64,000 nucleotides of DNA from an uncultured Bacteroidales bacterium (GCA_963825935.1 CAWGUN010000013.1:1012340-1076339), one strand, 5' to 3'. Positions 2,952 through 53,361 are shown, counted from the stretch's first letter. Translations and numbers: made by a program. Notes: a model not told the origin generated them from the letters alone.

Positions 2952-3704
2952 ATGAGAAAATTCGGCCTTATTGGCTTTCCTCTCGGGCATTCTTTCTCAA
3001 AAAAATATTTTTCTGAAAAATTTGCGAAAGAAAATATCAGGGATTGTTCCTATGAGAATTTCCCGATTCATGATTTAAACCTTTTTCCGGAATTAATATC
3101 AGGTAATCCTGAACTTTGCGGATTAAATGTGACTATCCCTTATAAGACCGGGATACTTAAATATATCGATACGGCTGAACCTGTTATTGATGAAATAGGT
3201 GCAGTGAACGTATTGAAGATCAAAAGAATAAATGGAAAGACCAGGATCTCAGGTTACAACAGTGATGTGATCGGCATAAGGGATTCGATATTGCCCGTCA
3301 TGAACAGCAGACTGAGAAGCGCCATAGTTCTTGGTACCGGAGGGAGTTCAGGAGCTGTCAGTTATGCATTAAAAAAGCTTGGATTGAAAGTGACCCTTGT
3401 CTCACGAACCAGGAAACCAGGAGTCATTTGTTATGAAGATATCACAGCAGAATTATTGAAAAAGACAGATCTGATAATCAATACAACACCACTTGGATTG
3501 TTTCCAAATACGACTGCCAGGCCTGAAATTGACTACAGCCTGCTGAATAAAAACCATATTCTGTTTGACCTCGTTTATAACCCCGAACTGACTTTATTTC
3601 TTGAAAGTGGGAAGGAGAGAGGGTGTAAAATAATAACCGGGCTGAAAATGCTTTACTCTCAGGCAGACCGTTCGTGGGACATCTGGAATGATGATAAAAT
3701 GTAG
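2952..3704 (+). CDS. aroE: Shikimate 5-dehydrogenase
   Basis: 250 aa. It has the FGLIGFPLGHSFSKKYF N-terminus, NVTIPYK, the GTGGSSGAV dinucleotide loop and NTTPLG. Confidence 0.85.
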   Translation: MRKFGLIGFPLGHSFSKKYFSEKFAKENIRDCSYENFPIHDLNLFPELISGNPELCGLNVTIPYKTGILKYIDTAEPVIDEIGAVNVLKIKRINGKTRISGYNSDVIGIRDSILPVMNSRLRSAIVLGTGGSSGAVSYALKKLGLKVTLVSRTRKPGVICYEDITAELLKKTDLIINTTPLGLFPNTTARPEIDYSLLNKNHILFDLVYNPELTLFLESGKERGCKIITGLKMLYSQADRSWDIWNDDKM

Positions 3705-19067: not shown

Positions 19068-20107
19068 ATGGAAATAAAAAGAGGATTTGCCAGCGATAAT
19101 AATGCCGGAGTTCATCCTGAAATATTAAAAGAGCTTGCTTTAGTTAATGCCGGTCATGAGATCGGCTATGGGGGAGACCGGTACACTATGCAGGCCCGGG
19201 AGCTCTTTAAAGAGGTGCTCGGCAGAGATACGGAGGTTTTCTTCGTCTTTACAGGTACTGCAGCAAATGTCCTGGGAATAACGGCTGTGACAAGATCCTG
19301 GAATTCCATTATTGCTGCCAGTACTGCACACCTGGAATCAGATGAGTGCGGGGCTCCTGAAAAATTCACCGGATGCAAAGTCCTGACAGTAGAAACCACT
19401 GATGGTAAAATTACAGTTGACCTGGTAAAAAAACATATGCATGGATTTGACTTCGAACACCATGCCCAGCCTAAAGTAATTTCCATTACACAGTCGACTG
19501 AAATGGGAACTGTCTACACCACCCGGGAGATCAAAACCATAGCCGGCTATGCTCATTCAATGGGGCTTCTTCTTCATATGGATGGTGCCAGGCTGGCTAA
19601 TGCTGCAGTTCTCTGGATCTTCCTTTTAAAGAATTCACTGCTGATGCAGGTGTCGATGTACTTTCATTCGGCGGAACAAAGAACGGACTTATGGCCGGGG
19701 AGGCTGTTTGTTTTCTGAAACCGGGACTTTCAGAGGATTTTAAATATATCAGGAAACAGGGAATGCAGCTGGCTTCAAAAATGAGATTTGTTTCAGCCCA
19801 GTTTATTGCTTATTTAAGGGATGATCTATGGAAAAGGTCCGCTTCCCATTCTAACTCTATGGCGAAGCTCCTCTCAGATAAACTCAGTGGGATTAAAGAT
19901 ATTACTATCACTCAAGCTGTCCAGTCCAATGGAGTTTTTGTCATTATTCCTCATGATGTCGTTGACAAAGTGAGGGAGAAATATTTCTTCTATCCCTGGG
20001 ATGAAAGTAAATCGGAATACAGGCTAATGACAAGCTGGGATACGACTGAGGAGGATGTAGAGGATTTTGTAAAGATTCTTAAAGCTGAAATACTTAAGAA
20101 GAAGTAA
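19068..20107 (+). pseudogene. ltaE: Low-specificity L-threonine aldolase, interrupted by a 1-nt frameshift near 19609
   Basis: Two track ORFs (19068..19718 and 19691..20107) together make one aldolase. Reading ...HMDGARLANAAV and then shifting frame gives SLDLPFKEFTADAGVDVLSFGGTKNGLMAGEAVCF, which contains the PLP-lysine region GGTKNG. Confidence 0.75.
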
Positions 20108-20115
20108 GAATGGAG

Positions 20116-20221
20116 AACAAACGAATGGTGAATTAAGAACTGAAAAACTTCTGCAATCCGACTTCGTTTGTTCCAATGTTCATACTTCAAAAAAAAGGTG
20201 TCCCGTCAGGACACCCTTTTT
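20116..20221. repeat. Direct repeat copy 1 (~106 bp), includes a terminator hairpin
   Basis: Matches 21099..21206 with one C/T substitution, one extra A in the copy-2 A-run and one extra T in its T-run. Confidence 0.9.
20189..20221. terminator. Bidirectional intrinsic terminator
   Basis: A8 run, GGTGTCC, loop cgtca, GGACACC, then C and a T5 run. Confidence 0.75.
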
Positions 20222-20278
20222 CTTGTTTTGTGCGAAAGACACCCAAAATTAAGATAGACGGACAAGACAATTAACTTC

Positions 20279-20608
20279 TCATGATTGGCATAATAAATTT
20301 ACTAACGAGGTCTTGAATAATCCAGTATGTGATAATTCTTTCCAATCTTTATTAAACTGATTAATAAGTGTCAGTTTTTTTCCCCTGGAAAACCCTTTAA
20401 TCTGTTTTTCCCTTTCTATTGCTGAAACAATTGAATCAAACCTTTCAAGATAAATCAGTTTATCAACATTATATTTCTGTGTAAATCCCTTTATTTTCTT
20501 TTGTTTATGTTCATAACACCTTCTCTCTAAGTCATTAGTACCTCCGGTATAAAGAACATTATGATGTGTATTTGTCAGGATATAAAAATAATATACCTGA
20601 GTTCTCAT
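20279..20608 (-). CDS. Small GIY-YIG nuclease family protein (URI-domain, COG2827-like)
   Basis: 109 aa. It has YYFYILTN..VLYTGGTNDLERRCYEH (GIY..YxG..R..H pattern) and ..EREKQIKGFSRGKK. Confidence 0.8.
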   Translation of the reverse strand: MRTQVYYFYILTNTHHNVLYTGGTNDLERRCYEHKQKKIKGFTQKYNVDKLIYLERFDSIVSAIEREKQIKGFSRGKKLTLINQFNKDWKELSHTGLFKTSLVNLLCQS

Positions 20609-20663
20609 TTAACTAACAGATTATTAATGACATTTATGATGAAGACCAAATTACAAAAAATCA

Positions 20664-20895
20664 GGAGATTCCTCGCTAACGCTCGGAATGACGTGGCGAG
20701 TTTGTAAGGTGTAGGGGGAAAGAAGTGGCGATTCGCAAACTTTAATTCTCTTGTCCATTTTACACTTTTTTGTGTAAACCTATTTTAGAACAAGACATTT
20801 TTGAACTCTTTCGATATTTTCAGCGAATCGCCACTTCTTTCCCCACCCCCTGTAAAATAATAAATTGTCATTCCGAGCGTTAGCGAGGAATCCCC
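20664..20895. repeat. 232-bp composite inverted repeat (MITE-like or structured RNA)
   Basis: The outer arms 20664..20692 and 20867..20895 are reverse complements (28/29). The inner arms 20715..20736 and 20823..20844 match 22/22. The 86-bp centre contains smaller stems of its own. Confidence 0.8.
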
Positions 20896-21098
20896 GGCAC
20901 TCTTGAACATTCACCTTCAGTTATTCAGACAGACAATCACAAATCAGAGAGTGCCTTGTCGCGCTTAGACCTCACCGAAGGTAATCTACCGGGATTCATG
21001 GTACGGATTATGGAGAGACACCCATATTTTCTAAAAATAGATCTCTTATTTGCTAAATATCAAATAGTTATACTTTAATGAAGCTAAAAACCGCTCAA

Positions 21099-21206
21099 AA
21101 CAAACGAATGGTGAATTAAGAACTGAAAAACTTCTGCAATCCGACTTTGTTTGTTCCAATGTTCATACTTCAAAAAAAAAGGTGTCCCGTCAGGACACCC
21201 TTTTTT
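21099..21206. repeat. Direct repeat copy 2 (~108 bp), includes a terminator hairpin
   Basis: See copy 1 at 20116..20221. Confidence 0.9.
21172..21206. terminator. Bidirectional intrinsic terminator (duplicate), 3' of tonB
   Basis: A9 run, GGTGTCC, cgtca, GGACACC, then C and a T6 run. It lies 19 bp beyond the tonB stop. Confidence 0.75.
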
Positions 21207-29527: not shown

Positions 29528-29921
29528 GCAGCAGGCCGTTCCATCGTCCCGCTTTTCCGCAGGGAAAAGCGGGAAGGAAAGTCCGGGCAACAAAGAGCAC
29601 CATGCTTCCTAACGGGAAGATATCCGTGAGGGTATAGAAGTGTAACAGAAAATAACCGTCCCGGTTTTACATTTTGTAGAAGCGGGGTAAGGGTGAAAAG
29701 GCGAGGTAAAAGCTCACCGGTTCCGATGGCAACACCGGAAGCCGTACACCTGATGGGTTGAAAGACCATGTATACCGGCAATAAGGGCTGCTCGTCCGAT
29801 GCCGGGGGGTAGGTCGTACGATCACCGCAGTGATGCTGTGACAAGATAAATGATGGAAAACGGTTCGAAATTCTCTTGCAGAAAACTGAACCGTACAGAA
29901 CCCGGCTTACAGGCCGGCTGC
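29528..29921 (+). ncRNA. rnpB: RNase P RNA, bacterial type A
   Basis: It has the universally conserved GGAAAGTCCGGGC (P4 5' strand) and ACAGAACCCGGCTTA (P4 3' strand). P1 pairs GCAGCAGGCC (29528-29537) with GGCCGGCTGC (29912-29921). Confidence 0.9.
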
Positions 29922-29966
29922 AACATGTAGAGGCGCCCAAATTGGTCGCCTCTACATGTTTTTTTT
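29922..29966 (+). terminator. Intrinsic terminator after rnpB
   Basis: Perfect 14-bp stem AACATGTAGAGGCG / CGCCTCTACATGTT followed by a T-run. Confidence 0.85.
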
Positions 29967-52231: not shown

Positions 52232-52264
52232 AACTTTACGGCTGGCTGTCAATTTAACCTTTTG

Positions 52265-52318
52265 TGATCTAGCTGGGATTCGAACCCAGGACCCTTCCGC
52301 GAAGCGGAATGCTCTACC
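52265..52318 (-). pseudogene. 3' fragment (54 nt) of a tRNA-Lys-like gene with a variant anticodon arm
   Basis: The minus strand reads GGTAGAGCA TTCCG CTTCG CGGAA GGGTC CTGGG TTCGAAT CCCAG CTAGATC A. The 5' acceptor strand and most of the D arm are missing, replaced by the end of the GIY-YIG ORF. Confidence 0.8.
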
Positions 52319-52559
52319 TGCAATTTATTATTTCGATGATAAAAGATTTTGATTTTCTGCTTTTAATATGCTTTTCTCTTGCCATAGCCTCTTTCCTGGT
52401 TTGAAACAATTCAGTATAGACAACTTCCCAGGGAATTCCAGCATCTGTAAACTTTCCTTTTTTGCGGTTATGCTCTGAAATCCTTCTTTCCAGATCATTG
52501 GTATAGCCGACATAGTACCTATCAAATGACTTACTATAAAGAATATAAACGGTAAACAT
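52314..52559 (-). CDS. Small GIY-YIG nuclease family protein (URI-domain)
   Basis: 81 aa from MFTVYILYS..RYYVGYTNDLERRISEHN (GIY-YIG pattern). The longer track start at 52598 would overlap the terminator. The stop TAG lies inside the tRNA-fragment D arm. Confidence 0.8.
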   Translation of the reverse strand: MFTVYILYSKSFDRYYVGYTNDLERRISEHNRKKGKFTDAGIPWEVVYTELFQTRKEAMAREKHIKSRKSKSFIIEIINCR

Positions 52560-52574
52560 AATGTGCAGTTGAGA

Positions 52575-52605
52575 CAAAAAAGAGGAACTATAAATCAATT
52601 CCTCT
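52575..52605 (-). terminator. Intrinsic terminator immediately after tRNA-Lys
   Basis: The minus strand reads AGAGGAA, 11-nt loop, TTCCTCT, then T6. Confidence 0.7.
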
Positions 52606-52614
52606 TCACCTTTG

Positions 52615-52687
52615 TGATCTAGCTGGGATTCGAACCCAGGACCCCATCCTTAAAAGGGATGTGCTCTACCAACTGAGCTACTAAATC
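52615..52687 (-). tRNA. tRNA-Lys (anticodon UUU)
   Basis: Hand-folded 73-nt cloverleaf: acceptor GATTTAG/CTAGATC (one G-U), D arm GCTC-AGTTGGTA-GAGC, anticodon arm CATCC-CTTTTAA-GGATG, variable loop GGGTC, T arm CTGGG-TTCGAAT-CCCAG, discriminator A. No CCA is encoded. Confidence 0.9.
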
Positions 52688-53308
52688 AAATTTTCATTTT
52701 AAAGAACCAGGACCCTTCCGCAAAGCGGAATGCTCTACCAACTGAGCTACTAAATCAAATTTTCATTTTAAAGAACCAGGACCCTTCCGCAAAGCGGAAT
52801 GCTCTACCAACTGAGCTACTAAATCAAATTTTCATTTTAAAGAACCAGGACCCTTCCGCAAAGCGGAATGCTCTACCAACTGAGCTACTAAATCAAATTT
52901 TCATTTTAAAGAACCAGGACCCTTCCGCAAAGCGGAATGCTCTACCAACTGAGCTACTAAATCAAATTTTCATTTTAAAGAACCAGGACCCTTCCGCAAA
53001 GCGGAATGCTCTACCAACTGAGCTACTAAATCAAATTTTCATTTTAAAGAACCAGGACCCTTCCGCAAAGCGGAGTGCTCTACCAACTGAGCTACTAAAT
53101 CAAATTTTCATTTTAAAGAACCAGGACCCTTCCGCAAAGCGGAATGCTCTACCAACTGAGCTACTAAATCAAATTTTCATTTTAAAGAACCAGGACCCTT
53201 CCGCAAAGCGGAATGCTCTACCAACTGAGCTACTAAATCAAATTTTCATTTTAAAGAACCAGGACCCTTCCGCAAAGCGGAATGCTCTACCAACTGAGCT
53301 ACTAAATC
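52688..53308 (-). repeat. Tandem array: 9 x 69 bp, each unit a 53-nt truncated 5' portion of a tRNA-Lys-like gene plus a 16-nt spacer
   Basis: The period is exactly 69 bp (unit ends at 52756, 52825, ... 53308). All units are identical except an A>G change at 53075 in unit 6. Confidence 0.95.
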
Positions 53309-53330: not shown

Positions 53331-53361
53331 CAAATGTAGGATATTTTTATAATAATGCAAA
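53331..53361 (-). promoter_or_regulatory. Candidate Bacteroidetes promoter (-33 TTTG, N19, -7 TACATTTG) driving the array and tRNA-Lys
   Basis: On the minus strand, TTTG is at 53361-53358 and TACATTTG at 53338-53331. The first unit starts at 53308. Confidence 0.45.

Follow-up and report, generated by a model that had tools for sequence, protein, structure and literature searches.

The tRNA-Lys region of the 64,000-nucleotide stretch of Bacteroidales DNA analysed here (hereafter the window) is best explained as a single representative of a cassette that is widespread in Bacteroidota and resides on tRNA genes, and we consider this reading probable. The architecture of the cassette has as its hallmarks a nuclease ORF fused to a pseudo-tRNA, a covarying hairpin that takes the place of the anticodon arm, arrays on both sides, and a polymorphism of empty and occupied sites.

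The tRNA-Lys locus of the window

Read along the minus strand from 53361 to 52259, the locus is made up of a promoter-like motif, nine 69-nt units, tRNA-Lys(UUU), a terminator, an 81-aa ORF and a 54-nt fragment. An earlier note on this DNA had described the array, the tRNA-Lys, the terminator, the ORF and a tRNA-like 3' fragment, and we found all of them in the places that it gave. The promoter-like motif, which is of the Bacteroidetes type (TTTG-N19-TACATTTG), was read from the sequence at 53331-53361 on the minus strand, upstream of the first array unit; the TACATTTGCACTCGCAAA context is also found 5' of tRNA-Lys or of its array in the relatives L149, L142, L099 and L127, and we infer that the motif would drive array and tRNA as a single transcript. 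The array that follows (52688-53308, minus strand) was delimited by TRF and a repeat search, TRF giving a period of 69, 9.4 copies and 99% matches. Each of its nine 69-nt units reads GATTTAGTAGCTCAGTTGGTAGAGCA-TTCCGCTTTGCGGAA-GGGTCCTGGTTC and then a 17-nt spacer, CTTTAAAATGAAAATTT; its parts are the acceptor 5' strand and D arm of tRNA-Lys, a hairpin that we call V (TTCCGCTTTGCGGAA) where the anticodon arm would stand, then the variable loop, and the 5' strand of the T stem ending in GGTTC. The spacer of the window bears a weak resemblance, seen by eye only, to the RKSKSF codons of the ORF.

Behind the array stands an intact tRNA-Lys(UUU) gene (52615-52687, minus strand), which was called by ARAGORN and by Rfam (RF00005, 73.3 bits), is presumably functional, and is the sole tRNA that these two programs call in the 64-kb window. 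Between this tRNA and the ORF, the terminator scan placed an intrinsic, cassette-borne terminator, GAAGAGGAA...TTCCTCTTTTTTG, at 52575-52607 of the minus strand (hairpin 52579-52607). The 81-aa ORF (52314-52559, minus strand) encodes a GIY-YIG protein (Pfam PF01541, E=5.8e-19), as had been recognised before, and its TAG stop lies inside, and runs into, a D-arm remnant, GG-TAG-AGC. That remnant (GGTAGAGCA, 52310-52318) is the first part of the downstream pseudo-tRNA fragment GGTAGAGCA-TTCCGCTTCGCGGAA-GGGTCCTGGGTTCGAATCCCAGCTAGATCA (54 nt, 52265-52318, from sequence and repeat search), which continues with a V hairpin (TTCCGCTTCGCGGAA, 52295-52309) and ends with a stretch identical to tRNA-Lys that covers the variable loop, the T arm and the 3' strand of the acceptor (52265-52294), all on the minus strand; the acceptor 5' strand is missing, the fragment having decayed there. 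The identity between fragment and tRNA-Lys had been put at 35 nt; the exact run is one of 34 nt (52261-52294 against 52611-52644), and the ranges then given include a mismatch at 52260/52610. The claim that fragment and array units have a variant anticodon arm in common was borne out: the arms TTCCG-CTTCG-CGGAA of the fragment and TTCCG-CTTTG-CGGAA of the nine units are a single loop base apart, and a 33-nt motif with this odd arm has 10 matches in the window against 0 expected from shuffles.

No cloverleaf with a 7-nt anticodon loop was found for the variant copies, and those of the window were left uncalled by the tRNA finders. At gathering thresholds the Rfam matches were limited to tRNA and RNase P RNA, the array units being assigned to no family, and neither the array unit nor the fragment of the window folded better than shuffles. 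Elsewhere, ARAGORN labels copies of the V type as Ala, Arg, Cys or Thr tRNAs.

In its geometry the locus conforms to an insertion that partially duplicated a tRNA gene, as the earlier note had proposed, and the element is indeed one that lacks an integrase, with the 81-aa ORF as the single ORF of the inserted block. A second GIY-YIG gene in a duplicated-target context had also been reported, and we located it at 20279-20608, within 983 bp of sequence that has a 106-bp direct repeat on either side; this second GIY-YIG family of the window forms a cassette with flanking target duplications both here and at an unrelated locus.

The nuclease, its family and the hairpin

The 81-aa protein is a predicted nuclease of the minimal, domain-only, Slx1/UPF0213-like type. 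The PF01541 match scores 68.6 bits against a cut-off of 22.6 and its single domain covers residues 2-71, within which Y5, Y16, G18, Y19, R25, R26, E29, H30, N31 and E62 are invariant in 17 homologues and would be residues of the catalytic type. An AlphaFold2 model (pLDDT 88) has the topology beta-beta-alpha-beta-alpha-alpha and with it the three-stranded sheet and flanking helices of the GIY-YIG fold. Foldseek matches that were significant or nearly so were all to GIY-YIG structures, in the order UPF0213 1zg2, then Slx1 (TM 0.60-0.68, 28% identity), then I-TevI and UvrC (TM ~0.5), and a profile search of PDB sequences returned 1zg2 (5e-10), 1ywl (2e-8) and no others. Whereas the UvrC/I-TevI lineage has a conserved C-terminal Asn (PMC1564403), the family alignment has no invariant or nearly invariant Asn after E62, and a separate DNA-binding domain such as Seg-type homing endonucleases have is absent from this single domain of 81 aa. 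The median dN/dS of intact ORFs is ~0.17, which indicates that the protein is under purifying selection. Other collections had little to add: NCBIfam has no model for the protein, PHROGs gave weak partial matches only, PADLOC gave partial weak matches of ~35 residues to larger proteins (E 2e-4 or weaker) and no full-length match to a defence protein, and look-ups of the exact protein were without success for the 81-aa protein, as for its TonB-like neighbour and P0123. Previous work has described the Slx1-like group as the minimal GIY-YIG form, with a predicted role in repair (PMC1564403).

The suggestion that small GIY-YIG genes of this family are tied to tRNA genes was supported by a survey of the neighbourhoods of homologues. 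There are ~295 close homologues, nearly all of 81 aa, in Bacteroidales and related MAGs, and our scan of species-representative genomes yielded 80 loci with homologues. Where at least 350 nt of upstream sequence was available (59 loci), a co-oriented tRNA ends 11-336 nt (median ~55) upstream of the ORF in 57. Lys(UUU) is the linked tRNA in 41 loci and the one that accompanies close homologues; those of ~50% identity lie behind Val(UAC), Arg(UCU), Met, Ala, Asp or Ser tRNAs. On the other side of the gene, 74 of the 104 full-length copies with enough downstream sequence run into the V hairpin and then into the 3' part of the local tRNA, the stop context being GGTAGAGC / GGTAGAGCAT in 40 copies. 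This second, partial tRNA copy agrees with the local tRNA in its T arm and acceptor 3' strand and has V for its anticodon arm; in L012, L048 and L047 a complete cloverleaf-like pseudo-tRNA stands downstream and overlaps the last codons of the ORF. Broken or partial nuclease copies account for 22 of 128, and remnants from which the ORF has been deleted occur in L038 and L048. Carriers that are in culture include Geofilum rhodophaeum HF401 (L034), Roseimarinus sediminis DSM 28824 (L040), which has three copies in tandem, and Pedobacter ureilyticus THG-T11 (L077). The cassette structure is present in many independent assemblies, megabase contigs included. A phage or plasmid vector is unsupported, because the homologues found in phage and plasmid collections have less than 45% identity and the one from a Rhizobium phage that we inspected does not adjoin a tRNA.

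Across all loci we found 57 distinct V arms, every one of which fits the pattern T(T/C)CCG...CGG(G/A)A. At the second pair of the stem, 23 distinct arms have T-A and 23 have C-G and none is mismatched, and the sixth and seventh pairs likewise covary. The stem has 6-9 bp, the loop is mostly of 3-5 nt and variable in sequence, and G-U pairs number 2 among roughly 300. As judged from the aligned arms, these data show that V is kept as a hairpin by compensatory changes, and its strict conservation in this form, for which a pure DNA-homology model has no need, hints at a function of the RNA or of a DNA hairpin. The variant arm had been taken for a property of the target, a view that our data do not support: because the same TYCCG...CGGRA hairpin is found in Lys-, Arg-, Val- and Ala-linked versions, V belongs to the cassette and not to individual tRNAs.

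Empty sites, occupied sites and copy number

Across a whole bacterial family the tRNA-Lys gene is syntenic between PyrK-PyrD-Lrp and DUF4252/ECF/porin, and its orientation can flip. With Lrp and not the nuclease as the anchor, we collected 80 metagenome loci, 36 of them complete. Among these 36, the nuclease gene is present in 6, of which 5 also have V units upstream, 7 have upstream V units only, and 23 hold a plain tRNA-Lys followed by its own terminator (for example L149, L099 and L127). The homologous site is polymorphic for presence and absence, with 6 occupied and 30 unoccupied cases, and V units are found more often where the nuclease gene is present (Fisher p=0.01, 36 loci). L142 has 5 upstream units without a nuclease gene, and the persistence of V units in L142 and L144, both without the nuclease, is as expected if the nuclease had been lost by recombination between the two 3' copies of the tRNA.

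Aligning empty with occupied sites reveals an inserted block of ~350 bp, placed just 3' of an unchanged tRNA gene, that consists of the conserved cassette terminator, the ORF, GGTAGAGCA, V and the 3' third of the tRNA. The native tRNA terminator follows the tRNA in empty sites and the fragment in occupied sites. A homologue of the cassette terminator hairpin (AAGAGGAA..TTCCTCTTTTTTGTCTC) is found 5' of the ORF in L002, L100, L009 and L023, and in looser form in L026, whereas the terminators of empty sites are different, native ones. The functional tRNA-Lys sequence is identical in occupied and empty sites, and a search of the resident tRNA-Lys for a substitution that would confer immunity gave none; the extra tRNA copies are altered at the anticodon arm and often also at the T loop.

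The comparison of orthologous loci that had been proposed earlier did reveal empty sites, but none of the ~30 Lrp-anchored sites without the nuclease holds an uninterrupted variant gene, and because no intact variant gene exists at orthologous sites we conclude that V travels with the cassette. In the PyrD-Lrp tree the lineages other than L001/L002 are 21-27% divergent, the rearranged L036 more, and since the tree is star-like the events of gain and loss cannot be counted on it.

Upstream arrays like that of the window are found in at least 14 other genomes, beside Lys, Val (L082, L074) and Arg (L067) tRNAs; among carriers the number of upstream units ranges between 0 and 9, and that of whole nuclease units between 1 and at least 16. 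Most junctions of upstream units lie in the T stem or T loop, where the homology to the tRNA stops; GGTTC is the exact end point in the window, L002, L009, L011, L017, L023, L142, L082 and L067, some unit junctions lie at other points, and several of the hairpin substitutions likewise map to the T stem or T loop. On the downstream side it is the whole unit of terminator, ORF and pseudo-tRNA that stands in tandem, with at least 16 copies of period 347 on a single long contig (L045 plus L027), 7 copies in L026, 6 in L024 and 2-4 in several others. The contigs that encode an identical Lrp neighbour have the same arrangement as the window. In L001, which is 0.1% divergent, the units number 9-10, one of them aberrant, and their SNP pattern is different; L002/L003, at 3.8% divergence, have 4 units against the 9 of the window, together with a downstream fragment that has a TTT loop and is followed by its own terminator, missing from the window. 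The array changes quickly, because both unit number and SNP pattern differ among such close relatives. Only in L032 is the array spacer a copy of the natural tRNA leader; elsewhere it is conserved between genomes and unlike the leader.

A proposed nuclease-driven cassette and its rivals

The closest parallel to these observations comes from phage T6, where SegB, a GIY-YIG nuclease encoded in the tRNA cluster, cuts inside tRNA genes at the motif RAWTSGAAC (PMC13096335). The enzyme is a homing endonuclease of free-standing type from the T4/T6 phage tRNA cluster, statistically associated with tRNAs, and it drives a recombination-dependent tandem amplification of a unit of tRNA and segB, at whose junction the tRNA's 5' end and segB's 3' end share microhomology (PMC13096335). 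By our own reading, RAWTSGAAC is the reverse complement of the T-loop sequence GTTCSAWTY. The cassette resembles this system in having a GIY-YIG gene beside tRNA genes, tandem units that hold both nuclease gene and tRNA sequence, and a unit junction between the 3' end of the nuclease ORF and the 5' part of a tRNA, and the cleavage motif of SegB falls in the T-loop region, where many cassette junctions map. However, SegB is a larger phage protein, whereas the cassette protein has 81 aa, is domain-only and Slx1/UPF0213-like, and is found on bacterial chromosomes; the extra tRNA copies of the cassette carry a conserved hairpin for the anticodon arm, its arrangement is stable enough to span families of Bacteroidota, and the catalytic domain of the homing-type I-TevI ranks below UPF0213 and Slx1 when compared with its protein. 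Because the cassette shares the unit geometry of SegB, we propose a mechanism of nuclease break and repair and, by analogy with SegB amplification, regard the cassette as probably a nuclease-driven, homology-dependent element of tRNA genes.

Under this proposal the predicted nuclease would break DNA in or beside the tRNA gene, a placement for which we cite the junctions in the T stem and T loop, often right after GGTTC. Homologous repair would then use the tRNA-derived arms that bracket the cassette, which would be homologous to that tRNA in any of its copies, irrespective of the flanks. When an empty tRNA gene is broken and an occupied one serves as the template for its repair, the cassette would be copied in. 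Exchange between the two 3' copies would delete the cassette, with a V-only array or an empty site as the outcome, or, when unequal, could amplify units, and repeated events or nested re-insertion into the resident tRNA may build the upstream units. V would make the extra copies non-decoding and would interrupt homology, and one functional tRNA would have to stay intact. The window may represent a state with a 9-unit array, one intact nuclease gene and a downstream fragment that would have lost its own terminator and its acceptor pairing.

Sequence-specific homing by the protein alone is not expected, because it consists of a catalytic domain only and its nearest structures are of the Slx1 type and not of Seg or I-TevI. 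In classic homing the allele that carries the element is immune, and the resident tRNA seems not to obey this rule, because it is identical to the tRNAs of empty sites. Given the family-wide synteny of tRNA-Lys, much of the distribution could reflect vertical descent and loss, which counts against the mobile reading, and the conserved spacer of the upstream units is a feature whose origin the cassette reading does not account for.

Other known systems are similar in part. The best matches in sequence and structure, and the minimal domain, point to Slx1(-Slx4) and UPF0213 proteins (BH0048/1zg2, EF2693/1ywl); yeast Slx1-Slx4 is a structure-selective nuclease tied to the maintenance of copy number in the rDNA tandem array (PMC1564403), but no partner protein is evident for the cassette nuclease. 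Similar to the islands and prophages of tRNA genes, the cassette is inserted at a tRNA gene, preserves the functional tRNA and has the 3' part of the tRNA directly duplicated at its far end, but it is only ~350 bp long and has no integrase, its duplicated copy carries an engineered-looking hairpin substitution, and both its flanks can be tandemly amplified. In TnpB/IscB (OMEGA) systems the guide RNA overlaps the 3' end of the nuclease ORF. The likeness here is one of geometry only, in that, at the margin of a mobile unit, the 3' end of a small nuclease ORF is shared with a structured RNA-like gene; the nuclease folds are unrelated, and the cassette shows no sign of an RNA guide.

An alternative that we think unlikely is that of a domesticated module acting at the level of RNA, in which one transcript covers the tRNA and the nuclease gene, the pseudo-tRNA pieces with their hairpins function as RNAs, and the arrays are selected dosage variants and not scars. 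The pieces could then form a tRNA-like 3' end that controls the processing or stability of the nuclease mRNA, or serve as decoys for tRNA-targeting enzymes or as a handle for protein binding. It would fit with a V stem kept by compensatory changes while the loop drifts, with the complete cloverleaf-like copies of L012, L048 and L047, with purifying selection on the protein, and with gaps between tRNA and ORF as short as 11-18 nt, which imply that the two are co-transcribed; a TrmH-GIY-YIG fusion has also led to the suggestion of an RNA role for bacterial Slx1-like proteins (PMC1564403). Yet the distribution at orthologous sites is patchy, many copies are broken and some remnants have no ORF, in the window, as in many relatives, the downstream copy no longer has its acceptor pairing, the unit and fragment of the window fold no better than shuffles, and no Rfam family exists, while the near absence of G-U pairs from V would suit a DNA palindrome equally well.

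Less likely still, in our view, is that the locus is a passive by-product of fragile, highly transcribed tRNA genes, where slippage and unequal exchange make the arrays and a GIY-YIG gene of the repair type is inherited vertically. The synteny of the tRNA-Lys locus across the family, the arrays of L142 and L144 with no adjoining nuclease gene, and the general view of Slx1-like proteins as repair nucleases (PMC1564403) all agree with such an origin, which would nevertheless leave unexplained why the same fusion of ORF into D arm, together with V, recurs behind seven tRNA species, why the cassette terminator is conserved, and why V units are enriched at nuclease-bearing sites. The hairpin itself invites a further idea, which we regard as improbable, namely that the pseudo-tRNA pieces are working partners of the 81-aa nuclease: V would be the binding handle of the protein, the arms derived from the tRNA, acting as RNA or as single-stranded DNA in folded form, would make this domain-only enzyme specific for the matching tRNA gene, and the upstream array would record or fuel repeated events, the whole amounting to a nuclease or mobile element guided by a tRNA mimic.

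The earlier note had read the locus literally, as a separate variant tRNA-like gene split by a block of tRNA-Lys, terminator and nuclease, and the way in which 5' units and a 3' fragment with the same arm bracket that block does give this impression. The nuclease-less sites contradict the reading as it was stated, since none has an uninterrupted variant gene and ~23 of them are an ordinary tRNA-Lys with its own terminator, to which 7 others add upstream variant-arm units; many carriers have no upstream unit at all, and V is common to cassettes on different tRNAs. We therefore consider it very improbable, noting that a modified version, in which a V-bounded element with a replacement tRNA splits a normal tRNA-Lys at the anticodon arm, fits the loci in which both flanks are present. 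Finally, duplication of a tRNA 3' end, as seen here, is typical of integrase att sites, but we give almost no credence to the remnant of an integrase-mediated tRNA-gene island or to an assembly artefact, given that the block has only ~350 bp, that the element contains no tyrosine or serine recombinase and is neighboured by Lrp/DUF937 and DUF4252/ECF sigma genes, that there is no integrase near the locus in the window or in the gene tables of L001-L005, that ordinary housekeeping genes flank the module in other relatives, and that many independent assemblies, some with megabase contigs, have the same structure.

Returning to the nuclease-driven cassette, our searches of the literature found neither a function or assigned role nor a tRNA-gene linkage for the bacterial UPF0213/Slx1-like mini nucleases, and no description of a tRNA-linked mini GIY-YIG architecture, with SegB as the sole close precedent; the cassette looks selfish, recombination-driven and apparently undescribed. 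In practice such cassettes break assemblies beside tRNA genes, and their pseudo-tRNAs are miscalled by gene finders. With one large branch of the UPF0213/Slx1-like mini nucleases now tied to a precise and repeated tRNA-gene architecture, it becomes testable what these enzymes cleave, whether a domain-only GIY-YIG protein can home, and whether the nuclease-driven ‘accordion’ amplification so far shown only for phage SegB also takes place at bacterial tRNA loci.

The second GIY-YIG cassette and its surroundings

The window holds, at 20116-21205, a second GIY-YIG cassette that is distinct from the tRNA-linked one, and its nuclease gene (20279-20608, minus strand) probably encodes a product of 101-102 amino acids, for which we found more than 1000 homologues. 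A 106-bp direct repeat, which itself contains a terminator hairpin, brackets the 983-bp segment holding this gene. Immediately 5' of the ORF lies a nested inverted repeat, with its first pair at 20640-20692/20867-20919 (GTCATTCCGAGCGTTAGCGAGGAATC in each arm) and its second at 20715-20736/20823-20844. A homologue of the gene (81% identity), accompanied by the same nested inverted repeats, occurs at an unrelated locus from outside the window, L166, where it is bracketed by 22-nt direct repeats at a spacing of 1098 bp. These features suggest a mobile cassette of about 1 kb with a target duplication.

Just upstream of this cassette are two overlapping ORFs (19068-19718 and 19691-20107), which appear to be a single aldolase-like gene disrupted by a frameshift. 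The window also carries a bacterial class A RNase P RNA (29528-29925, 239 bits), which is an ordinary housekeeping gene.

Hairpins and inserts in the pseudo-tRNA copies

Substitution by a hairpin extends beyond V, the short hairpin (TYCCG...CGGRA) that replaces the anticodon arm in the partial tRNA copies. In the downstream fragments of seven loci from other genomes or metagenomes (L021, L024, L029, L014, L071, L081 and L082) a GC-rich hairpin that starts right after GGTTC replaces the 3' half of the T arm, and is of the same type as V (YCCCG...CGGGR; for example TCCCGATAGGTATCGGGA). In every upstream unit of L067, an inserted hairpin (CCTGCCTGACGGTAGGCAGG) separates the acceptor arm from the D arm. 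Apparently, any tRNA arm can be swapped for a hairpin.

Separately, we observe that the T loop of several pseudo-tRNA copies is broken directly after GGTTCGAA by an insert, ranging in size from 45 nt to over 150 nt, which begins CCGAG and closes with CTCATGAGCCYGCGAATAA, the tRNA sequence then continuing TCCC (L007, ~355-420; L012, ~3505-3565; L064, ~3270-3330; L067, ~745-800; and 3' of the fragment in L100). The insert may represent yet another small element or a scar left by repair.

Locus orientation, assembly and annotation

Between the same flanking genes, Lrp and DUF4252/ECF, the tRNA-Lys lies in opposite orientations in different lineages, whether it carries the cassette or not. Among cassette loci, L011, L017, L019, L026, L030 and L061 are opposed to the window, L006, L009, L016, L023 and L059, and among empty sites L099, L125 and L127 are opposed to L149 and L139; L036 shows a larger rearrangement.

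Among the contigs of species-representative genomes that carry the tRNA-linked nuclease gene, many begin or stop no more than a few hundred bases from it (e.g. L006, L007, L010, L015, L020, L035 and L044), and the contigs with close homologues of the 81-aa protein are mostly no longer than 2 kb; short-read assemblies seem to be broken by the tRNA-linked cassette and its arrays. When the V loop happens to be 7 nt, ARAGORN labels V-type pseudo-tRNAs as tRNAs, calling them tRNA-Arg(tct), tRNA-Cys(aca), tRNA-Ala(tgc), tRNA-Thr(tgt) or tRNA-??? (L038, 125-340; L040, 2492-2948; L048, 3231-3304; L047, 399-827). Such calls probably add false tRNAs to the annotation of Bacteroidota genomes.
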